From an uncultured archaeon (GTDB lineage: Archaea > Thermoplasmatota > Poseidoniia > MGIII > CG-Epi1), in contig CAYMDK010000005.1 in the NCBI GenBank assembly GCA_964389465.1, forward strand, positions 22,169-86,168: a stretch of DNA of 64,000 bases, read 5' to 3'. Made by a program: the position numbers and the translations under genes. Below are positions 9,742 to 61,065 of this stretch, in pieces. Position 1 is the first letter of the stretch; each line of letters begins with the position of its first letter. Below the pieces are notes generated by a model, which was not told the DNA's origin, made no database searches, and saw nothing but the letters and a program-made list of their open reading frames with translations.

Positions 9742-10512
9742 CTAAAGGGTTGCCCAGAGCGGCTCGAGCTGCGCCAGCTGCCGCAGGATTTCGTCGCGCA
9801 CCCCGGGCGGCTGCTTGCCGTCGGTATCAACGATGAGGTCGTAGCCGGCCGGGTCGCGGTAGTCGAAGCCGTAAAGCTCGAGGTAGCGCTGCCGGTCGTC
9901 CTCGTCGCGGCGTGTGTTGTCGCGCAACCGCACCGCCGCGTCAGCTGCGCCTTCCAGCTTCAGCGCCGCGACCGCGTCGGCCAGCGCCGCGAGCGTCTCC
10001 GGCTCGCCCGGCGGGAGCGTGTCGCGCGCCAGCCGACCGGCGTCCTCGCCCAGCTCGCGCTTCAGGAACCGCACCGCCTGCTCGCGGCGCGAGCAGCGGA
10101 AATAGAGCCGCGCCATGTTCTCCTTACCCAAAGAGGACATGAAGCCGCCGAGCCAGCCCGGCTGCCGCCCCTCGATGACCGCCATACTCCCGTCGAGCCC
10201 CGCGCCGCCAATCCACTCGCAGGTGGCGTAGTCAATCTCGACATCTATCCCGCGTTCTGTCAGCAGCCGCCGCGCCTGCTCCGCAACCGAGATGCCGCGC
10301 CGCGCCGCCGCCTCGCGGAAAAGCCCGCCGACCGAGCGGCAGACGCCGCTGAAGTGGCCGGCCAGCATTCGTGCCTGCGTCGACTTGCCGGTTAGCTGGT
10401 CGCCCGCAATCAGGATGACCGGCAGCGGCGTGACGGTCGCCATCAGTCGCTCGACCGCGTCCGGCCCGATGTGGGTCGTGAAGGCGCGCTCGATGCCCTT
10501 GAGCGGGTCCAC
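9742..10512 (-). CDS. P-loop kinase-like protein (cytidylate-kinase-like AAA domain), function uncertain
   Basis: Walker A-like motif VILIAGDQLTGKSTQARMLA, with a cytidylate-kinase-like layout and a C-terminal extension. Confidence 0.65.
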   Translation of the reverse strand: MDPLKGIERAFTTHIGPDAVERLMATVTPLPVILIAGDQLTGKSTQARMLAGHFSGVCRSVGGLFREAAARRGISVAEQARRLLTERGIDVEIDYATCEWIGGAGLDGSMAVIEGRQPGWLGGFMSSLGKENMARLYFRCSRREQAVRFLKRELGEDAGRLARDTLPPGEPETLAALADAVAALKLEGAADAAVRLRDNTRRDEDDRQRYLELYGFDYRDPAGYDLIVDTDGKQPPGVRDEILRQLAQLEPLWATL

Positions 10513-10554
10513 GACGGCGCACCGCAGCGTGGCTCTAATACGATTATTGGCGAG

Positions 10555-10586
10555 CGAGCAGCGGCCCGCGAACAGGCCGCTGCTCG
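10555..10586 (-). repeat. Perfect 12-bp GC-rich inverted repeat (hairpin) just downstream of the low-GC orphan gene
   Basis: CGAGCAGCGGCC (10555-10566), an 8-nt loop, then GGCCGCTGCTCG (10575-10586). It lies between the orphan gene stop (10614) and the next gene start (10512). Confidence 0.5.
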
Positions 10587-10613
10587 GTATGGGCGGGGAA
10601 GTGGACGGCGAAG

Positions 10614-11417
10614 TCAGTAGCGCAGCGGCTCATCGGTTTCGTTGTAGACGAAGACTTTTTCTTTCGGAATCCACCGCGCATAAAATTCTCCGTTCTTTCG
10701 GCATAGTCGTTTTTCCCAGTTATTATAATCCGATTCGGAGATTGATTTCCATTCGGTTAATCCCTGCTTAGTATTCACAGCCCGGTAGCTGCCGTCTTCA
10801 CGTTTCACCGGCTTGAAGCCAGGAATGTAAGGTATCATCTTATTAATCGAAGCTGTTTGAATTAGATATTCTTCATCGCTTTCATCTATCAGATAATACA
10901 CATGGTTACGATGAATTCCTATTCGCTCTTTAATATCATATAGCTTGATTATTTCTGCTCTCTTAACTTCCTTTTTCGCCACCATATCATATGAATTGAT
11001 TTCCAAATGGTATAAATCAAAAATATCCCAGTCAGATGTTTTCAAAGTTACTGATTCCTCATTCTCATCAACCACTTCAAAGAAGTGTTCTCTATACTTG
11101 ACGCGATACCGCTCGTAATAATTTTTAATATACTCAACGTCGTTTGTGGGAACTTTCAACCCATAGCGGCTGAGATAACCACTTTCATCGTATATATTGA
11201 ATCTACCATATTTCTCTGCTTTCTCTTTGAAATGAGTTCGAAGAATAAACAGATTATCTTTATGACGACCAGTGGTTGTAAACAGGTCATCTTTGTATCT
11301 GTAAACACTTGAAATCCCTGCTTGGCCTTCCGGGGAATAAGACATTACAATATCTCCATGCCTCACCTCTCGCTCCCCCTTCTTAACCCTTATCGCCTTT
11401 TTATCCGGCGAAGCCAC
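10614..11417 (-). CDS. Orphan 267-aa protein encoded by a low-GC island; no recognisable domain
   Basis: Long uninterrupted ORF with Lys/Tyr/Ile/Asn/Glu-rich composition (..YRYKDDLFTTTGRHKDNLFILRTHFKEKAEKYGRFNIYDESGYL..). The DNA is visibly AT-rich from ~10620 to ~11420, in contrast to GC-rich flanks. No TM segment or signal peptide. Confidence 0.75.
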   Translation of the reverse strand: MASPDKKAIRVKKGEREVRHGDIVMSYSPEGQAGISSVYRYKDDLFTTTGRHKDNLFILRTHFKEKAEKYGRFNIYDESGYLSRYGLKVPTNDVEYIKNYYERYRVKYREHFFEVVDENEESVTLKTSDWDIFDLYHLEINSYDMVAKKEVKRAEIIKLYDIKERIGIHRNHVYYLIDESDEEYLIQTASINKMIPYIPGFKPVKREDGSYRAVNTKQGLTEWKSISESDYNNWEKRLCRKNGEFYARWIPKEKVFVYNETDEPLRY

Positions 11418-11459
11418 CGCGCGCCGGCTACCGTGCGCATAACGGGATTCTGTCCCGAA

Positions 11460-12494
11460 TCAGCAACTGAATCCCGGCTCCAGATGCCCCGTGACCGGGT
11501 CGCCGAAGTCCATCACGCGGCCGGGGTAGTCCTCCTCGCAGACGAGCGCGATAAGGCTGTTCGGCGCCTCGTCGATGATCTGCCACCCCAGCTCGTCGGC
11601 CAGCTCCTGCGCGAACGTTTGCACCTCGGGCCACTCGAGCATGTTGTGCTGGCTGAGCCGCTTGCGCGCCGGGCCGAGGTGCATGTAGCTCTTCACCTCG
11701 ACCATCGTCCGCGCGCCGGTGCGGCGCGCGAGCGCGGCGTAGCCGGGAACGTCGAAATCGTTCCAGTCGCGGACGACGGTCATCCGCAGCACCTTGCGCG
11801 TCTCCAGCCCGTCGAGCAGGTCGAGCGTGCGGGTGACCCGCTCCCAGTAGTCGGGCAGCAGCGGGACGTCAATCTTCTTCCACGTCTTCGCGTCGGGCGC
11901 GTCCATCGAGACGTAGAGCTGTGTCGGCAATGCGTCCTCGTCGCGGAGCCGCTCAATCATCTCCGGGTGCAGGCCGTTCGTCACGAGGAACGATGAGATA
12001 CTGCGCGCGCGCAGCTCGCGCAGCATCTCCGGCAGTCGTTCGTAGAGTGTCGGCTCGCCGGTCAGCGAAATCGCGAAGTGCCGCACCGTCAGCGATTCCT
12101 CGAACTTCTGTCGGTCAATGTTGGGGTTGCCACCAAAGCCGGAGAGCTTGTGCAGGTGCGCCTCGATTGAGCCCTGCACGATGTCGGCCGGGTCGTCCTT
12201 CGCCTGGGTCATCAAGTCCTGCTTGCCCGAGAACATCTCATTGGCACGCCAGCAGTAGACGCACTTCTGGTCGCACGCGACCGCCGCGGGGGTCATCTGC
12301 GTGCACTGGTGCGAGCGGATGCCGTAGAACTTCTGTTTGTAGCACCCCTCCGAGCCGGTGCGCATTCCCTTCTTGGTCCAGCCGCAGATTTCGATGGCCG
12401 AGTGGTTGCCGACGATTTCGTAAGACGCCTTCTCGAGCGCGCGCTTGTATTCGTCGGTGAAGAGCAGGTTGCCGCTATCCGCTGCAGACTGCAT
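11460..12494 (-). CDS. taw1: tRNA 4-demethylwyosine synthase (Taw1/TYW1, radical SAM)
   Basis: CYKQKFYGIRSHQCTQMTPAAVACDQKCVYCWR carries the auxiliary and radical-SAM Cys clusters. Other matches: AISLTGEPTLY and VTNG. Confidence 0.9.
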   Translation of the reverse strand: MQSAADSGNLLFTDEYKRALEKASYEIVGNHSAIEICGWTKKGMRTGSEGCYKQKFYGIRSHQCTQMTPAAVACDQKCVYCWRANEMFSGKQDLMTQAKDDPADIVQGSIEAHLHKLSGFGGNPNIDRQKFEESLTVRHFAISLTGEPTLYERLPEMLRELRARSISSFLVTNGLHPEMIERLRDEDALPTQLYVSMDAPDAKTWKKIDVPLLPDYWERVTRTLDLLDGLETRKVLRMTVVRDWNDFDVPGYAALARRTGARTMVEVKSYMHLGPARKRLSQHNMLEWPEVQTFAQELADELGWQIIDEAPNSLIALVCEEDYPGRVMDFGDPVTGHLEPGFSC

Positions 12495-13216
12495 CAGATG
12501 TCCGAGACTACGCTGACGTCAAGCTCCCAGCCAACCAGTGAGCAGGTCAGAGTATAGTCGAGTGGTTCGTCCTTAATGGGGCTAGGGTTTGCATCATCTT
12601 CGTAGGTAATCACGCCCGAGACCGGTGGCCCCGCCGCCTCGAACGATGCGATAAACTCCGCGACCGTGTTGGCCGAGCCGGAGACGGTTTTGCCCAGCGC
12701 CGTAACGGGAACGGTGATGGTGACCGAGGCGTCGAAGCCAGTCCCTTGCACAGTTTCCGAGAAGTTGCCGCTGGTGACCTGCAACGAAACGGTCGGCTGC
12801 CCGATGTCGACGCTCGAGGTGGAGTCCTGCCACGACAGCGTTACCACCACCTCGACCAGCCGCAGCTCGCCCGCGAAATCCCACTCGCCTTCACCGGCGT
12901 CGACCCCGAACGGCACGCTGTCGCCCTCGTCCTGCAGCGTCCCGCTCTTGCCGGGGCCGGCGGTGTTGTTGGTCGCCACGTCCGCCTCGAAGCCGGTCGT
13001 GCCGCCGCCGATGCCGGAGACCGCGACCGAGTTGGCCGCCGACTGGAACGAAATCGCGAGGATGATGATGATGATTACGAAACCGATGGCGCCCGAGACC
13101 AGCCGGCCGGTTACGGCGAAGGGGAAGCCGCCCGGCAGCTCCAGCCGGCGCAGCTCGCTGTTGTTGTAGCGCTCGAACTGCTTCAGCTTCTCACCCACGG
13201 TGTCGGACAGCGCCAT
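12494..13216 (-). CDS. Hypothetical membrane-anchored extracytoplasmic protein
   Basis: One TM helix (LVSGAIGFVIIIIILAISF) after a ~35-aa N-terminal segment, followed by a Thr/Ser/Gly/Val-rich beta-type domain. The stop overlaps the taw1 start (TGATG at 12494). Confidence 0.65.
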   Translation of the reverse strand: MALSDTVGEKLKQFERYNNSELRRLELPGGFPFAVTGRLVSGAIGFVIIIIILAISFQSAANSVAVSGIGGGTTGFEADVATNNTAGPGKSGTLQDEGDSVPFGVDAGEGEWDFAGELRLVEVVVTLSWQDSTSSVDIGQPTVSLQVTSGNFSETVQGTGFDASVTITVPVTALGKTVSGSANTVAEFIASFEAAGPPVSGVITYEDDANPSPIKDEPLDYTLTCSLVGWELDVSVVSDI

Positions 13217-54694: not shown

Positions 54695-54985
54695 CTACTC
54701 GATGGATTCCCACTCGACCGTATCAGGCAGTACAATGCCCTGGTCACGCAGGATTTCGCGAAACGCCTCGGGGCGCAGCGAGGCAATCTCGGCGCCCTTG
54801 GTCAGCGTCGCCTGGCCGCTGCGGTAGAGTTCGACCGCCGCGGCGGCCCGGAAATGCTGTTTTTCTTCGAGGAAGAAGCGCAGTGCTTCCTTGACTACGT
54901 CGGAGCGGCTGCTGAAATGACCTGAAGCGACAAGGGCGCCAATCTGTGCAACCAGCAGTGTGGGGAGCGAAAAGGAGCTGCTCAT
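54695..54985 (-). CDS. Ribbon-helix-helix (ParD/CopG-like) plus UPF0175-like fusion protein
   Basis: The N-terminus LPTLLVAQIGALVASGHFSSRSDVVKEALRFFLEE follows the ParD-type RHH pattern. The C-terminus AVELYRSGQATLTKGAEIASLRPEAFREILRDQGI follows the UPF0175 pattern. Confidence 0.7.
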   Translation of the reverse strand: MSSSFSLPTLLVAQIGALVASGHFSSRSDVVKEALRFFLEEKQHFRAAAAVELYRSGQATLTKGAEIASLRPEAFREILRDQGIVLPDTVEWESIE

Positions 54986-55068
54986 AAAATAATAATTAGC
55001 AACTATTATTTATAATTAATTAGCAACCTTTATATGGGGTGTGTTTGTCGAATAGCTCGGTGCGTAAT
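54986..55068. promoter_or_regulatory. AT-rich divergent promoter region with 10-bp direct repeat AATTAGCAAC
   Basis: AATTAGCAAC at 54994-55003 and 55018-55027 (24-bp period). TTTATAT at 55029-55035. GGTG at 55059-62, 7 nt before ATG 55069. Confidence 0.35.
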
Positions 55069-58000
55069 ATGCACAATACCAACCTGAACACGCCAGTAAA
55101 GCTCGCGCTGCTGTTTGCAGTGGGGCTCGCCATGCTCGCATTCATGCCATCGGCAGAAGCGGCAGAGTCATTCACCGTAGATGTTTCACCATCTACCCAG
55201 AACGGTGAACCCGAGGAGACGCTGACCTACACAATCACTGTCGAGAACACGGGTGACAATGATGACTCCTATAACCTGACTATCACTAGCACCAACCGCT
55301 CGGGCTGGAAGGAATACATCCTGCCCACTTCGCTGGATGTCAAGGACGGGCAGTCGGAAACTGCCACACTCTATGTCGAGATTGGTGACCGCGATGACGC
55401 GCCCGCGGGCGTGACTGAGTTCATCACCTTCAAGGTCGAGTCGGTTGACCTCAGTTCCGGTGCCAAGAGCAAGTCAGTGACTGCCAAGGTAACACAGGTC
55501 TATGGTAACAGCCTGTCAGTTAACGGCACTACCACGCAGAAGACCGACCCGGATGAAACCGTGACGTTCGCCATCAAGGTAACCAACGACGATGGCAACG
55601 GTGAGGACACAATCACGTTCAGCCAGACCAGTTCGGGAACCGATGACTGGTCTTTCGTCTTTCCCGGGAGCATAACTCTCGACAAGGATGAATCCACTGA
55701 AATCTCATTCTCGGCGACCCCCGATATCAACGCCCTCGCCGGGCTGAAGAGCATCAGCCTCTTCGCCACTTCCGAGGATGGCGATACCAAAACCTCGGTA
55801 ACGATAACCGTGCGCGTGAACAAGCTGCCTGACCTGAACGTGGTCAAGGTTGGCACGAGCGCTCAGGATGTTGAAGCGGGCAAGCGGGTCTATTACTCGT
55901 TCTCAGTGACCAACAAGGGGAACGCAGTTGATTCATACGACCTTTCTATCGAGAACGGCAGCTGGTACGACAAGGGCTGGGAAGCTTCGCTTGACAGCGA
56001 GGAAATCAGCAGTCTCGACGTTGATGAGACCATCAACCTGACCGACGTACTGGTCATCAAGGCGCCCGCGAACGCCGCAGCCGATGAGGAAGTGACCATC
56101 AAGGTCAAGGTCTCATCGCAGGAAAACTCTTCGGTCTACAAGACCTACACTTCGCGCACCACGGTCCTGCAGGACTTCGAGCCGAAGCTGAAGGTGATTG
56201 GTGGAGACACCCAGTCTGCCGAGCCCGACGTGGAGGTCTCCTACACGATTAACATCACTAACGAAGGTAATGGCGAGGATGATATCACCCTCACGCTCCA
56301 CGGCGGCAACGCCACCTGGGGAACTCTCGCGGAATCTTCCTTCACCCTCGCCGCTGGCGAGAGTGACGAGACCACGCTGCGCGTCACCGCTCCTGACGGG
56401 ACACTGGCGCAGAACGGCTACACGATTACTGTCCGCGCCACTTCCGAGGATACTAGCACTCGCGCCAACCGCAACGTCTTCCTGAACGTCCAGCAGGTGT
56501 TCGAGGTTTCTGTCTCGGTTTCGGGCGATTCGACCAAGAATGGCGACCCCGGCGATTCGCTCTCGTACGTGATTACGGTCAAGAACAAGGGCAACGGCGA
56601 GGATACGGTCAACCTGGCCCTTGAGGGCACCGAGGCCGACTGGGGCTCGATTGTTGAGGACGTTGACCTCGACGCAGGGCAGTCCACTACTGTCAACCTG
56701 ACGGTCAGCATCGATGAGGAAGCTAACTTCGGCGACTATACCATTACCGTTAACGGCTCCTCGGATGAGGCTACCACCGACACCTACGACACCACTTCGG
56801 TGACTGTCACGGTCAACAAGGAATACCAGGTTGACCTGCTGATTAACGAAGCCCAGAAGAACGGCGATGCCGGCAGCTCCGTAGTTTACGATATCATAGT
56901 CAAGAACAAGGGTACAGGTGAAGACACCATCCGCCTCTCGGTGCCCACCCTGCCCTCCCTCTGGACCGCCAACTTCAACGAGACCGAAGTTGACATCGAG
57001 GCTGGCGAGGATGCGCTGGTGAACCTTACAGTTGCAATTAAGGAAAAGGAGGACAACCGGGCCTTTTATGTCAACATCACCGCCATTTCCATTGGCGCCA
57101 AGGATGAGGACAAGGACGTCAACGCCACCGCCTCGACGATTACCACGGTCAACCAGTACTACGAGTTCCGCATGACCTCTGCGCTGACCTACACCAGGGC
57201 AGACCCGGAGGACACCTTCACCGTCGACATCCTGATTGACAACAAGGGTACTGGTGATGACACGGTTAACCTCGAAGTTACCGGCCCCGAGAACGCGACC
57301 GGCTGGGTTACCGACATTACGCCTTCGGTCGAGGTCCCCGAAGGAGAGAACCGCACCGTGACCCTCACCGTTACTGTCTCGGAAGACGCGGTCAAGGATT
57401 CCTACTACATCACTGTCACTGGCGCTTCCTCTGATCAGGCGTCCGAGACGCACGCCGTCACCATTCAGGCCGATGTCAGCCAGCGCTACGAGGTACAGAT
57501 GCTGCCCCGTACGGAGACCAAGGCGGCCGAAGCCAACGACATGCTGGAATTCTCGATTACCGTCAAGAACAAGGGTACCGGCGAGGACACCTTCGACCTC
57601 GAGCTGGGCGGTGAGGTCGGCGTCAGCTGGGGCTCGCTCTCCAACGTCAGCCTCACGATTGCCGCAGGCGATTCTGCGGACGTTGTCCTGACAGTCGAAG
57701 TACCGGCCGACGCTCAGCCCAAGTCCGAGGGTGCATACGAAATCCTTGTTAACGCCACTTCGGTCGACAATGCGACTGCGGTCGACTCGGTTGTACGTTA
57801 TATAGACGTCGAGAAGAAGAATCTGGACGTCGAGGTAACTGCCGAGTCCTCAACCGCGCAGGCCGAACCGGGCGATGATGCCTTTTTCGACGTCAATGTC
57901 AAGAATGTCGGGAATGACGTTGACATTGTCACGCTGACTTTCCCGACTGACAGCCGCCAGTGGGCTACTTTTGTTACCAGCGGGACTGATACGCATACGG

Positions 58001-61000
58001 TAAACCTGACGGTGAACCAGCAGAAGACGGTCCGCATCAAGGTCTCCCTGCCGGAATACGCCAACGCGACCGGACAGGACAAGAGCGCGCTGGAGGCCAG
58101 CAGCTACCAGGTCACAATCAAGGCGACTACCGGCGACGGCAGTCGCTGGGAAACGGCGTCTCTCAGCACCAGTATCCAGCAGATATACGGTGCCGAAATC
58201 ACGGCGCAGGGCGCCAGCAGCGTCATAACCTTCCCTTCGACCGAGTCGAGCGCCAGTGACCGCGAAGAGAAATTCACCTTCAAGCTCAAGAACCTGGGCA
58301 ATAAGCAGGACACAATCGATGTCGAGGTGAGTGGCTCCGGCTCTACTTTCCCTGATGAGTGGACGGCTTCAATACACACTAGTTCAACCTGCTCCGGTAC
58401 GTTCAGCGGCTCTGTAAGTGCTGGCTCTTCCAAGACTTTCTACCTCTGTATTACGCCCGACCAGGATTCGGAGCCGGGCAACTATACTGTATTTGTCGAA
58501 GCCACTGCGCGAAACGGTGCCGAGGAACCGGTCACCGACAGCGTAATGGTCGAAGTGCGTGACCCGACCCGCAGCCTGACGCTCGCCTCGGACGAGCCGG
58601 GAATTATTCTGGCACCCGAACAGGGCAACGACGAGAAGAACACTGCACGTTTCAAGATCGTGATTACCAATACCGGCAGCCATGACGACAAGTTCATCGC
58701 CGAGCTGGATGAGGTACTTGGCAGCGGCTGGACCACCGACTTCTACACCAAGAACACCGGCTCGACCGGCGACAAGTGGTCCACCAGCGGCGAAGATATT
58801 GAGGATGGCCAGACCGACGACCTCTGGTTCATCGTCGAGGTTGACCCCGATGAAGTGGATGAGGGCAACTACACCATGTCGCTCACGATCAAGAATGCCG
58901 GCGAGGACATATCGCAGTCGATCAGCCTGACGCTGCAAATCAATGCTCCGCAGCGTGGCCTGACGGCGAGCGTGATTGATGAGTCCAAGGAAATCTCGCC
59001 GGAATACAAGGCGTCCGCCAGCTCCACCAAGAACATGGTCAAATTCAAGGTGAAGCTGGAGAACAGCGGCACCCACCCCGACAAGTTCATCCCCGAAGTC
59101 GAGTCAACGCTTGATGACGAGTGGGAAGTGAGTTTCTATCAGGACAGCTCCAAGACGTCGCCCTGGTCAACTTCCTCGGGCGTTGAAATCGAGGCCAACG
59201 AGCTTGACGACCTGTGGGTCTTTGTCGAAGTTGATGATGAGGCTGACGAGGGCAACTACACTATCACCATCTCGGTCCGCAATGAGGAGGACGACCCCTC
59301 CGCCCGGCAGGAATTCACGCTGAACATTCATGTCCAGCGCTCCGACATCACCCTCTCCGCCAGCGATATCCAGCTAGAAGCGGATGGCGTGCTCGGTAAT
59401 GCCTCGGCCGTCAAGGACGGTGATACCGTGACCGTGCTGGTTGACGTTACCAATGAGGGTAACGCCGACGCGGACGACGTGCAGGTGGAAATCTTCTACT
59501 ACCCCAAGAAGGCGCCCGAAGACCAGAATGATATCGATGACCTCATCAACAAGGGCTTCGAGCTGGACGACGACAAGAACACCTACATCTATTCGCTCTT
59601 CAAGAAGCGCACCAACCTGAAGGCTGGTGCGACCAAGTCGCTTGCCTCCGATGACTGGCTTATCGAGGCTGGCGAGTGGTATGTCGAAGTTCGCGTTGAT
59701 TATGATGAGGATGACTCCGACAATGGTGAAATCCTTGAGAACAACGAGAACAACAACGACGCACGCTACGGCGAGCTGCTGCGCATCAAGCCCGACCTCA
59801 CCATCAGCGACCTGCGTGTCGACGCGCGTTTCGTGGGCCTCACGGCCAGGACACCCAATATCGATGACCAGGTTACCTTCACGGCGACCGTGACCAACAA
59901 GGGAGCGGCCGATGTTGACAATGCGCGGCTCTACATCACTGCCGACAGCAGCGACGAGAGCGGCGTCATCCTCAAGGACCGCGGCATCAAGGACCACGTC
60001 GAATTCAGCATTGATGCTGGCGCGACTGAGACCATCCGTTTCCGCTGGAAGGCGGTGAGCGGTGAGTGGACCACCTTCCGTGCTGACGTCAACCCGAGCT
60101 GTGACGACTTCGCCATCAACATCTTCGACTGCGAGCAGCAGGGTGACGGCGACGGTGGCGACACCGACCACATGTATGACGAGTTGAACCGCTACAGCGA
60201 CAACACCTTCCCTGCTGGCGGCGACGCGTTCCAGCAGGAGGGCGTCGAGGTCAAGTTCGACATCCTGCCTGACTTCAGCATCAAGGAGGTCAAGATGGAC
60301 CCGCGCGTACCCGAAGTAGGGGACGACGTTGAAATCACGGTCGTTATCGAGAATACCGGTAACGCCGACTGGAAGATTGGCAGCCAGCTACTCTCGCTCG
60401 TCTTCGATGATGGTGTCGGTAACACCATCACCACGCAGGTGAGCAGCGACATCAACGAGGGTGACGAGATCGAAGTCAAGTTCACCTGGAAGTTCCCCGA
60501 CGAGGACAAGGACTCACTGCTCCTCACCTACGAACTGGATGTCGGCAGCGGCAGCTGGGAGATAGACCAGACTGACAATTCCAATGACGAATACGAAGAG
60601 AGCGTCACGGTAATCCAGCCCGCAGTCGTGGGCGAGATTGCTGCCCTGGATGTCTTCAGCCGTGAACTGGTGCGTGGCACTGGCTTCAAGGTCTACCACT
60701 TCGTGGCGCTGATGTTCGTCGCCGTGCTCGCGATTGCGGTGCCGGTGGTTATCTCGCGTCGCATGCGCCGGGGAGCTGCTGCGGTCGAGGAAGATGATGC
60801 AGCGCCCGAGGCAGTCGCCGAGGCGCCGCTCGCCAAGATCGGGCTCGCAATCCAGTCGGCGGTCGACGGCAAGACGGCCAACGTCAAGGTCCCCTCCGAC
60901 ATGCCGATCGAGCGGCTCATCCAGAACTGCGTCGAGAAATTCCCGCTGCCGCACGCCAACTTTGCGGCACATGTGAACGGTGAGGCGGTCGATTCAGGCC

Positions 61001-61065
61001 TCTCGCTAGTTGACGCGGGGCTGGTCGACGGCTCTGAAATCCAGCTGGTTTCGCTCGAAGAGTGA
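55069..61065 (+). CDS. Giant (~2000 aa) cell-surface protein: signal peptide, ~12 NEW3/COG1470-like beta-sandwich repeats, 3 CARDB-like modules, TM anchor, cytoplasmic ubiquitin-like tail
   Basis: ATG 55069 (MHNTNLNTPVKLALLFAVGLAMLAFMPSAEA); the track uses GTG 55039. The repeat core recurs as TYTITVENTGDNDDSYNL, SYVITVKNKGNGEDTVNL and EFSITVKNKGTGEDTFDL. TM helix at 60691-60753. See findings for the tail. Confidence 0.9.
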   Translation: MHNTNLNTPVKLALLFAVGLAMLAFMPSAEAAESFTVDVSPSTQNGEPEETLTYTITVENTGDNDDSYNLTITSTNRSGWKEYILPTSLDVKDGQSETATLYVEIGDRDDAPAGVTEFITFKVESVDLSSGAKSKSVTAKVTQVYGNSLSVNGTTTQKTDPDETVTFAIKVTNDDGNGEDTITFSQTSSGTDDWSFVFPGSITLDKDESTEISFSATPDINALAGLKSISLFATSEDGDTKTSVTITVRVNKLPDLNVVKVGTSAQDVEAGKRVYYSFSVTNKGNAVDSYDLSIENGSWYDKGWEASLDSEEISSLDVDETINLTDVLVIKAPANAAADEEVTIKVKVSSQENSSVYKTYTSRTTVLQDFEPKLKVIGGDTQSAEPDVEVSYTINITNEGNGEDDITLTLHGGNATWGTLAESSFTLAAGESDETTLRVTAPDGTLAQNGYTITVRATSEDTSTRANRNVFLNVQQVFEVSVSVSGDSTKNGDPGDSLSYVITVKNKGNGEDTVNLALEGTEADWGSIVEDVDLDAGQSTTVNLTVSIDEEANFGDYTITVNGSSDEATTDTYDTTSVTVTVNKEYQVDLLINEAQKNGDAGSSVVYDIIVKNKGTGEDTIRLSVPTLPSLWTANFNETEVDIEAGEDALVNLTVAIKEKEDNRAFYVNITAISIGAKDEDKDVNATASTITTVNQYYEFRMTSALTYTRADPEDTFTVDILIDNKGTGDDTVNLEVTGPENATGWVTDITPSVEVPEGENRTVTLTVTVSEDAVKDSYYITVTGASSDQASETHAVTIQADVSQRYEVQMLPRTETKAAEANDMLEFSITVKNKGTGEDTFDLELGGEVGVSWGSLSNVSLTIAAGDSADVVLTVEVPADAQPKSEGAYEILVNATSVDNATAVDSVVRYIDVEKKNLDVEVTAESSTAQAEPGDDAFFDVNVKNVGNDVDIVTLTFPTDSRQWATFVTSGTDTHTVNLTVNQQKTVRIKVSLPEYANATGQDKSALEASSYQVTIKATTGDGSRWETASLSTSIQQIYGAEITAQGASSVITFPSTESSASDREEKFTFKLKNLGNKQDTIDVEVSGSGSTFPDEWTASIHTSSTCSGTFSGSVSAGSSKTFYLCITPDQDSEPGNYTVFVEATARNGAEEPVTDSVMVEVRDPTRSLTLASDEPGIILAPEQGNDEKNTARFKIVITNTGSHDDKFIAELDEVLGSGWTTDFYTKNTGSTGDKWSTSGEDIEDGQTDDLWFIVEVDPDEVDEGNYTMSLTIKNAGEDISQSISLTLQINAPQRGLTASVIDESKEISPEYKASASSTKNMVKFKVKLENSGTHPDKFIPEVESTLDDEWEVSFYQDSSKTSPWSTSSGVEIEANELDDLWVFVEVDDEADEGNYTITISVRNEEDDPSARQEFTLNIHVQRSDITLSASDIQLEADGVLGNASAVKDGDTVTVLVDVTNEGNADADDVQVEIFYYPKKAPEDQNDIDDLINKGFELDDDKNTYIYSLFKKRTNLKAGATKSLASDDWLIEAGEWYVEVRVDYDEDDSDNGEILENNENNNDARYGELLRIKPDLTISDLRVDARFVGLTARTPNIDDQVTFTATVTNKGAADVDNARLYITADSSDESGVILKDRGIKDHVEFSIDAGATETIRFRWKAVSGEWTTFRADVNPSCDDFAINIFDCEQQGDGDGGDTDHMYDELNRYSDNTFPAGGDAFQQEGVEVKFDILPDFSIKEVKMDPRVPEVGDDVEITVVIENTGNADWKIGSQLLSLVFDDGVGNTITTQVSSDINEGDEIEVKFTWKFPDEDKDSLLLTYELDVGSGSWEIDQTDNSNDEYEESVTVIQPAVVGEIAALDVFSRELVRGTGFKVYHFVALMFVAVLAIAVPVVISRRMRRGAAAVEEDDAAPEAVAEAPLAKIGLAIQSAVDGKTANVKVPSDMPIERLIQNCVEKFPLPHANFAAHVNGEAVDSGLSLVDAGLVDGSEIQLVSLEE

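Follow-up and report, generated by a model that had tools for sequence, protein, structure and literature searches.

How does a single AT-rich gene come to lie between two housekeeping genes of a GC-rich archaeal chromosome, and what kind of protein does it encode? The question is raised by a low-GC open reading frame (ORF) on the minus strand, between taw1 and a kinase-like gene, in the 64,000-nt stretch of DNA analyzed here (the window; contig labelled C5:22169-86168; all coordinates are positions in the window), which comes from the genome (1.26 Mb, GC content 0.649) of an uncultured deep-water archaeon of Marine Group III (Poseidoniia). Comparison with relatives, an independent assembly and base composition identify the ORF and its immediate flanks as a recent and genuine horizontal acquisition, a strain-specific islet of the flexible genome of this GC-rich organism. 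With respect to the explanation as a whole, we consider it probable that the islet was imported by recombination from a lower-GC archaeal gene pool and that it encodes a three-module protein of the binding or adaptor type. In the labels used below, P numbers denote proteins of the family, L numbers contigs or records of relatives, and C numbers contigs of the host genome.

A recent insertion at a conserved site

The limits of the insert follow from the arrangement of the same two genes in related genomes:

10553..11459, minus strand: inserted segment of ~905 bp, missing from all relatives (junction alignment against 11 relatives, the gap in 30 relatives, absence of the DNA in 40 relatives)
10513..10552, minus strand: retained ancestral taw1-kinase spacer, presumed kinase promoter region (matches the spacer of relatives)

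From the taw1 stop to the kinase start there are 37-43 bp in 11 of 11 relatives and likewise in every one of 30 named relatives from Marine Group III, which represent three genera and include six members of the host's own genus, against 947 bp in the window; the two genes are thus directly adjacent elsewhere, which is the comparison that an earlier reading of this DNA from the sequence alone (hereafter the sequence-only reading) had proposed for delimiting an insertion. At the kinase end, the ~40 bp next to the start codon still align with the spacer of the ancestral arrangement (p<0.001), and at the other end the junction is no more than a few bases from the stop codon of taw1; together these junctions place the insert at ~10553-11459, in essential agreement with the limits of 10555-11459 given in the sequence-only reading. 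Starting immediately behind the taw1 stop codon, the insert is oriented like its two neighbors and consists of one gene. Neither 60 relatives nor another 400 genomes drawn from across the class contain this gene, and a DNA-level search of 40 relatives recovered no piece of the insert.

The insert is also found at this site in an independent assembly in ENA (MIZU16-1 scaffold_1045), with 99.87% identity to the window over 12.7 kb and 16 single-nucleotide polymorphisms (SNPs) across both flanks; one, a non-synonymous change, is in the ORF. Given that this second assembly has the same junctions, with SNPs on both sides of them, a chimera is ruled out, and both junctions moreover lie inside long contigs. 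The MIZU16-1 copy also dates the event: the insertion occurred after the split from the nearest sampled species, whose taw1 is 95% identical, and before the strain-level split. The converse possibility, that of an ancient resident gene lost from all relatives, would call for many independent and precise deletions, since an alignable spacer of 37-43 bp is present in every one of the 30 relatives from three genera, none of which has a low-GC orthologue at this site. Whether framed as an ancient gene or as an assembly or binning artefact, this alternative has a vanishingly small probability and is effectively excluded.

Base composition sets the islet apart as sharply. In 300-bp intervals the GC content falls to 0.337-0.407 at 10650-11400, compared with 0.63-0.73 on either side. 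The GC and tetranucleotide deviations, which the sequence-only reading had suggested quantifying, are large: the GC content of the ORF is 4.6 standard deviations under the mean of genome-wide 700-bp intervals, and its tetranucleotide distance ranks 17th among 3110 genome intervals. The GC content at third codon positions (GC3) is 0.39, compared with 0.81-0.90 in seven adjacent genes, and just 8 of 1447 long ORFs genome-wide have GC3 values as low. As described in the sequence-only reading, the dip corresponds to one intact minus-strand ORF (10614-11417, 267 aa from a GTG) amid GC-rich DNA; the AT-richness is confined to the coding body, and the ends of the insert are GC-rich (10553-10613, including a hairpin, and 11346-11459). 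Recent horizontal acquisition, the central proposal of that reading, is thus strongly supported by the empty site in 30 of 30 relatives, by the GC3 of 0.39 against ~0.85, and by the absence of the gene from 400 genomes.

The genes taw1, the kinase-like gene and pheS are the neighbors that the sequence-only reading had named, as domain matches bear out, and all three are on the same strand as the ORF. The two that flank the insert are:

11460..12494, minus strand: taw1, tRNA wybutosine radical-SAM enzyme, upstream flanking host gene (Radical_SAM and Wyosine_form domains)
9742..10512, minus strand: P-loop NMP-kinase-like gene, downstream flanking host gene (family-library match)

Directly upstream of taw1, with a 1-base overlap with its start, a 240-aa protein is encoded (12494-13216, minus strand) that has one N-terminal hydrophobic segment and no Pfam match and is kept in the MIZU contig.

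The islet is not unique in the host, where about six equally deep low-GC islands are found on other contigs. Five of these (C16:201-2101, C17:9501-12501, C19:14401-18101, C4:66501-68401 and C8:201-5201) have a minimum GC content of 0.34-0.37, and their products are mostly membrane proteins or large proteins of unknown function; the 1.26-Mb genome has ~36 patches with a GC content <0.50. Elsewhere in the window, there is a mild dip (0.49-0.51) at 54900-55400, at an intergenic region and the start of a 2008-aa ORF (55039-61065, plus strand).

Hairpins and the search for mobility signatures

Two stem-loops are associated with the ends of the insert:

10555..10586, minus strand: perfect GC-rich hairpin, 27 nt 3' of the ORF stop, inside the insert and just before the retained kinase promoter/spacer
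11443..11476, minus strand: second small hairpin across the insert/taw1 junction, with 11-nt arms (10 of 11 paired), a 12-nt loop and the taw1 stop codon in the loop

The former, a perfect 12-bp inverted repeat (10555-10566 and 10575-10586) already pointed out in the sequence-only reading, is real, and it folds into a 13-bp stem with a 4-nt loop (z-score of the region, -3.3). It was not found 3' of other family members, and neither the hairpin nor the insert ends occur a second time in the host genome, where the insert is single-copy. The junction hairpin is built partly from insert DNA and partly from the last taw1 codons, so that the insert gives taw1 a new 3' stem-loop.

There is no tRNA at positions 1-25000 of the window and no Rfam match. 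The locus encodes no integrase or transposase: the only ORF of the insert has no Pfam or NCBIfam match, and the neighbors are housekeeping genes. Neither terminal inverted repeats nor significant direct repeats were detected at the insert; a near-repeat of 8-11 nt, CGGCGAAG[T/C]CA, at 10606-10616 and 11406-11416, brackets the ORF with a spacing of exactly 800 bp and is within chance for GC-rich flanks (p~0.16 in the alignment of the left with the right flank). Nor does the right flank duplicate the spacer of the ancestral arrangement (p~0.1). The lack of integrase, transposase, tRNA and flanking direct repeats noted in the sequence-only reading accordingly holds up in the tRNA scan and in the repeat and flank tests.

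On these results several types of insertion are unsupported at the window locus. An att-like spacer duplication or long target duplication was rejected on the comparison of the right flank with the empty-site spacer; an integrative element (provirus, integrative and conjugative element or integrated plasmid) is disfavored by the missing integrase and tRNA and the chance-level flank repeats (p=0.16); and an insertion sequence, miniature inverted-repeat transposable element or other transposon by the missing terminal inverted repeats, the non-significant near-repeat and the single-copy state of the insert. For an integron-like cassette, a hairpin is present, but it is not shared with the 3' flanks of other members, is single in the genome and is accompanied by no integrase.

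Architecture of the encoded protein

The gene model and the modules of the protein are as follows:

10614..11345, minus strand: ORF of 243 aa plus stop, with the likelier start at ATG 11345 (GGAG 8-11 nt upstream; homologues start ~12 residues after this ATG)
11346..11417, minus strand: possible 24-codon N-terminal extension from GTG 11417, without counterpart in homologues and with intermediate GC3 (0.54)
11115..11318, minus strand: module A, residues 10-77 (hhalign against B; match to the module hidden Markov model (HMM), E=5.5e-4)
10932..11114, minus strand: module B, residues 78-138, the most canonical of the predicted SH3-like barrels (hhalign; predicted local distance difference test (pLDDT) score of 88 when folded alone; SH3-like matches with template modeling (TM) scores of 0.42-0.56)
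10617..10931, minus strand: module C, residues 139-243, with an insertion of ~45 residues and the conserved tail (hhalign; secondary structure of the model)

The 243-aa start is preferred because homologues and gene callers favor ATG 11345, and the segment 11346-11417 is more likely a 5' leader or promoter region, with a ATAAAAAG box ~50 nt upstream of the ATG, than coding sequence.

The product is a soluble, highly charged, cytoplasmic protein made up of three tandem modules of ~60 aa, probably SH3-like, and a near-invariant tail. Homology among the modules is apparent from profile-profile comparison of alignment slices with hhalign (A-B, E=3.8e-12; A-C, E=7e-5; B-C, E=3e-5), and the family alignment displays the repeating pattern Y-R-V-K-Y-K-D-H-F-F ... 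V-x-L ... K-W-V-P-K-x-E-V. The alignment ends in the near-invariant C-terminal tail of the family, VFVYNETDEPLRY; the conserved segment reads W-[VI]-P-K-x-x-V-F-V-Y-N-E-T-D-E-P-L-R-Y, and when the three module ends are aligned it matches the linker between modules together with the first strand of what would be a fourth module. From this alignment we infer that the tail would pack back on the body and so close the three-module structure. The module HMM detects an extra pair of modules in P0006, a member of 394 aa, and module number thus varies within the family; stand-alone single-module proteins were not found. Family proteins are soluble and free of transmembrane segments; they contain ~34% charged residues, with positive and negative charges in balance, and ~15% aromatic residues, and have an isoelectric point (pI) mostly of 5-6.5. 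The window protein has no transmembrane segment, as the sequence-only reading had it (maximum Kyte-Doolittle value over 19 residues, 0.33).

AlphaFold2, run with the family alignment, yields a compact model (pLDDT 87, predicted TM score 0.80) in which the tail, too, is ordered (pLDDT 84-88) and each module runs beta1-beta2-beta3-helix-beta4-beta5. Foldseek searches of PDB and BFVD with the whole chain returned nothing at E<0.001, the best weak matches being Spt5 KOW repeats, PilZ pairs and the tandem Tudor domains of 53BP1. For module B folded alone, the PDB matches are all SH3-like barrels (TM 0.42-0.56, root-mean-square deviation 2-4 A, E >= 0.57), among them the myosin N-terminal domain, the retroviral integrase C-terminal domain, Spt5 KOW1, Hfq and KapB. 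Judging from these models, the fold class is likely that of the SH3-like small beta-barrels. Foldseek matches to PCNA and OspA were dismissed as spurious extended-sheet matches (probability 0.02-0.08).

At the sequence level, the window protein has no match in Pfam, NCBIfam, PHROGs or PADLOC, and searches of PDB sequences with the single sequence or with two profiles found none either. When 24 family members were scanned singly, none matched Pfam, NCBIfam, PHROGs or PADLOC, save for a weak SH3_9 match in one (E=0.12). The structure prediction and Foldseek comparison that the sequence-only reading had recommended thus provide a confident model with no significant characterized relative, and no clear homology to a housekeeping family emerges from Pfam, NCBIfam, PDB or Foldseek.

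Distribution and genomic contexts of the family

A phmmer search of 1.84 billion cluster representatives recovered 23 family proteins at E<0.001, all of them without names and from metagenomes or metagenome-assembled genomes. The gene is therefore an orphan, as the sequence-only reading called it, in the sense that it belongs to no named family, but not in the sense of standing alone, as it is a member of a small and widely scattered family. The family appears to be undescribed, very rare and archaeal. Within the class its distribution is sporadic, with the gene in one of 401 genomes. Scans for the DNA motif of the C-terminal tail gave no matches, and peptide-pattern scans no confirmed matches, in IMG/VR, GTDB species genomes and JGI metagenomes, and tblastn against 50,697 phage records and 72,556 plasmids found no homologue. 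An origin from a virus or plasmid, as considered in the sequence-only reading, together with its suggestion that viral metagenomes might hold homologues, consequently finds no support in IMG/VR, in the phage and plasmid records or in PHROGs. Faint precomputed matches to the uncharacterized Pfam family PF27768 (UCP033725) exist for P0002, P0004 and P0020 and not for the window protein; a literature search found nothing published on PF27768.

No conserved partner gene is apparent across the ten genomic contexts recovered. Most homologues are found among chromosomal housekeeping genes, and members adjoin transketolase/Trm112, an AIRS-domain gene, S8 and C25 peptidases, or large adhesin-like proteins with PKD/LVIVD domains. 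In every context the GC content of the family gene is below that of its flanks; the contrast is small in hosts with a GC content of ~0.43 (L066 and L060), where the gene is compositionally native, and extreme in GC-rich hosts (the window, L062 and L024). A polymorphic-toxin/immunity role, brought to mind by the large secreted proteins beside two homologues, was rejected, as the C-termini of these proteins are PKD/Ig domains and a toxin domain is lacking.

Two further contexts deserve description. L059:3664-4984 holds tandem paralogues of 232 and 205 aa, each with a GC3 of 0.25, between Trm112 and a Tsr3-like gene in a host of ~0.45 GC. P0004 lies ~5 kb from two tyrosine-recombinase genes encoding proteins of 312 and 479 aa (L001:185-1624, L002:2399-4880), which adjoin a gene for a 1076-aa LVIVD/PKD surface protein on a marine archaeal contig of ~0.48 GC; this neighborhood may be an integrated element.

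A possible second allele and mosaic gene structure

Three segments of the window bear on whether the locus exchanges alleles:

10614..10658, minus strand: tail-coding segment (KVFVYNETDEPLRY plus stop), with GC-rich, host-like codons (GC3 test; codon alignment)
11206..11260, minus strand: 55 nt identical to the 5' end of L023, inside module A; branch point of the putative alternative allele (contig overlap)
10601..10655, minus strand: 55 nt identical to the 3' end of L023, comprising the tail and 13 nt of downstream flank; rejoining point (contig overlap)

The last 14 codons of the gene have a GC3 of 0.79, compared with 0.37 in the body (P=0.002). In the codon alignment, the tail DNA is near-identical in three genes of one metagenome that are otherwise 35-42% identical as proteins, and members from other samples have the same tail peptide encoded by AT-rich synonymous codons. 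L023 (ENA MIZU16-1 scaffold_131254, 1-1298) comes from the same metagenome as the near-identical strain, and between its window-identical ends it carries the complete five-module paralogue P0006. Exact, k-sized overlaps at both ends of a contig are what an assembly-graph bubble produces, which argues for a second haplotype at the locus: to go by the overlaps, this haplotype would apparently hold, at the same site, what is left of a truncated gene of the window type and, after it, another member of the family, P0006.

Another arrangement is seen in L062:1800-3540 (GCA_964629215.1, contig CAZVQF010000076.1), where there are two unrelated AT-rich ORFs, one for a 167-aa protein and one for P0007. 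Each ORF is preceded by a GC-rich direct repeat of ~190 bp (83-84% identical), which takes in the 3' end of an upstream 57-aa gene, and is trailed by a 23-nt repeat; the genes that flank the ORFs are an adjacent pair in the host's own genome (C4:43389-44327). L062 is thus a second, independent insertion site, and it hints at reusable slots, here a duplicated slot with different cassettes. The window leader could not be aligned convincingly with the 190-bp repeat, and homology between the two is not claimed.

A more far-reaching scenario can be drawn from these observations, although we regard it as decidedly improbable in its entirety. GC-rich Marine Group III archaea would possess recombinase-less gene slots with host-adapted frames, consisting of the leader/promoter, the last ~14 codons and the 3' hairpin, within which AT-rich bodies drawn from the wider pool of low-GC archaeal genes would be swapped time and again by homologous recombination; the invariant tail would then double as a 3' recombination handle, and the protein, a new closed three-barrel architecture with its C-terminal strand as a clasp, would serve for recognition in conflicts between virus and host or between cells, as a module that diversifies rapidly.

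Origin and function

With respect to the origin of the islet, the donor would be a lower-GC marine archaeal gene pool, and entry would be by recombination, without a dedicated integrase or transposase. In one GTDB family of Marine Group III, the host's own (L026-L055), the GC content at the locus is 0.58-0.66 in the host's genus and 0.34-0.45 in the other genera, a large compositional shift between close lineages despite conserved gene order; as most of the host's own family is thus low in GC, a lower-GC marine archaeal donor is plausible. After its arrival the locus would keep exchanging alleles within the population, and the 3' crossover would fall within the conserved DNA for the tail, whose codons are of the host type. 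As for function, we tentatively propose, from the modeled fold, a non-enzymatic binding or adaptor protein in which the barrels would recognize a macromolecular ligand (protein, peptide or nucleic acid). The pattern of this family, patchy and fast-diverging, with a varying number of modules and an apparent turnover of alleles, is what selection of the conflict or niche type would be expected to produce in an accessory gene. The more specific idea of a basic nucleic-acid binder in the manner of Sso7d, prompted by a K-Y-K-G-E-like motif, is unsupported by the pI or by any search.

Several observations weigh against this combined explanation of origin and function. The GC-rich insert ends, hairpin included, have no source in the host genome or in 40 relatives, and the case for an alternative allele is one built on contig overlaps. 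None of the fold matches reaches statistical significance (E >= 0.01 with the whole chain and E >= 0.57 with the module), the acidic to neutral pI disfavors a classic basic nucleic-acid binder, and the tail's conserved acidic and aromatic residues might just as well make up a catalytic or metal site.

Among the alternatives, that of a stand-alone conflict gene, encoding a defense, anti-defense, toxin or immunity protein that acts on an invader or host target, is unlikely but deserves serious attention. A role in defense, toxicity or anti-defense, as surmised in the sequence-only reading, is compatible with the distribution and turnover of the gene: it is solitary in conserved neighborhoods and extremely sporadic, its paralogues diverge fast (the three of 35-42% identity in one sample), they occur in tandem in L059 and with variable module number, and an allele has apparently been replaced in L023. 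Against such a role, there is no PADLOC match, no conserved partner gene and no neighboring toxin domain in the ten contexts, the large neighbors being adhesin-like, and no toxin, nuclease or NTPase motif in the protein. A different route of arrival, as cargo of an archaeal virus, provirus remnant or plasmid whose carrier has since been lost or reduced to a single gene, is a good deal less probable still. The foreign composition of the ORF would fit such cargo, as would the patchy distribution of orphan genes, which is typical of viral gene pools, and P0004 lies among small ORFs of unknown function near its two tyrosine integrases; yet P0004 is the only homologue so placed and a distant one, most others being chromosomal, and the locus itself has no integrase, att repeat or tRNA. 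Moreover, viral relatives are missing from IMG/VR by both DNA-motif and peptide scans and tblastn is blank in the phage and plasmid records, with no PHROG match for any of the 24 members and no BFVD fold match.

Lower again in likelihood, and to our mind very improbable, is a self-mobile one-gene element, either a free-standing gene of the homing-endonuclease type or an integron-like cassette with the hairpin as recombination site. The precise placement of a single gene between conserved neighbors at no fewer than two unrelated loci (the window, and L062 when compared with C4 of the host's own genome), the perfect hairpin at the insert end and the repeated ~190-bp frames around two different AT-rich ORFs in L062 are what such an element might leave behind. 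The protein, however, has no nuclease or recombinase motif (no LAGLIDADG, GIY-YIG, HNH or PD-(D/E)xK domain), the hairpin is neither conserved 3' of other members nor repeated in the genome, there is no target duplication or terminal inverted repeat, with the 11-nt near-repeat within chance, and the different sites occupied by different members speak against a homing site. Thus, recombinational import from a lower-GC archaeal pool of a gene for a binding or adaptor protein is the explanation that we favor.

Relation to known systems

The closest parallel to the locus is offered by the flexible genomic islets of marine prokaryote pangenomes, which likewise are present or absent among close relatives at a fixed site between core genes, deviate in composition, have no dedicated mobility genes, are accompanied by other such islets in the same genome and occur as alternative alleles at one site in one population, as the window islet apparently does to judge from the 55-nt overlaps at each end of L023. 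Unlike those islets, that of the window consists of just one gene (0.9 kb) and is not beside a tRNA, and its compositional junctions are at or inside the ORF (GC-rich leader, last 14 codons, hairpin) rather than intergenic.

Insertion with long target duplication has been described for restriction-modification genes in bacteria. The window locus resembles it in being a single foreign gene between core genes without a recombinase, and L062, though not the window, has a ~190-bp repeat, including the 3' end of the upstream gene, that frames the inserted ORFs. At the window locus the ancestral spacer has no second copy in the right flank (p~0.1), and this mechanism is therefore unsupported there.

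The protein itself is comparable to tandem SH3-like barrel proteins, such as those with Spt5 KOW, 53BP1 Tudor, integrase C-terminal or myosin SH3-like domains, in its tandem modules of ~60 aa and in the matches of the isolated module (TM 0.42-0.56). It differs in having no sequence similarity to them and no Pfam SH3, KOW or Tudor match, in the helix between strands 3 and 4, in the invariant C-terminal tail that is the family's own, and in being acidic to neutral rather than basic.

Implications

As an islet of the flexible genome it belongs to a known kind of feature and is a fairly ordinary example, with a protein family that is uncharacterized, and by itself it answers no long-standing question. 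What it does provide is a case, documented with exact boundaries and an empty-site series, of one gene brought very recently into an uncultured archaeon of deep water, which adds to the evidence that this GC-rich lineage of Marine Group III contains many AT-rich imports whose source was lower-GC relatives. Furthermore, the newly defined family of three probably SH3-like modules and an invariant tail comes with a confident model usable for structural and binding studies. If the mosaic composition and the second allele are true, the locus would be a convenient natural example of integrase-less exchange of accessory genes in archaea.

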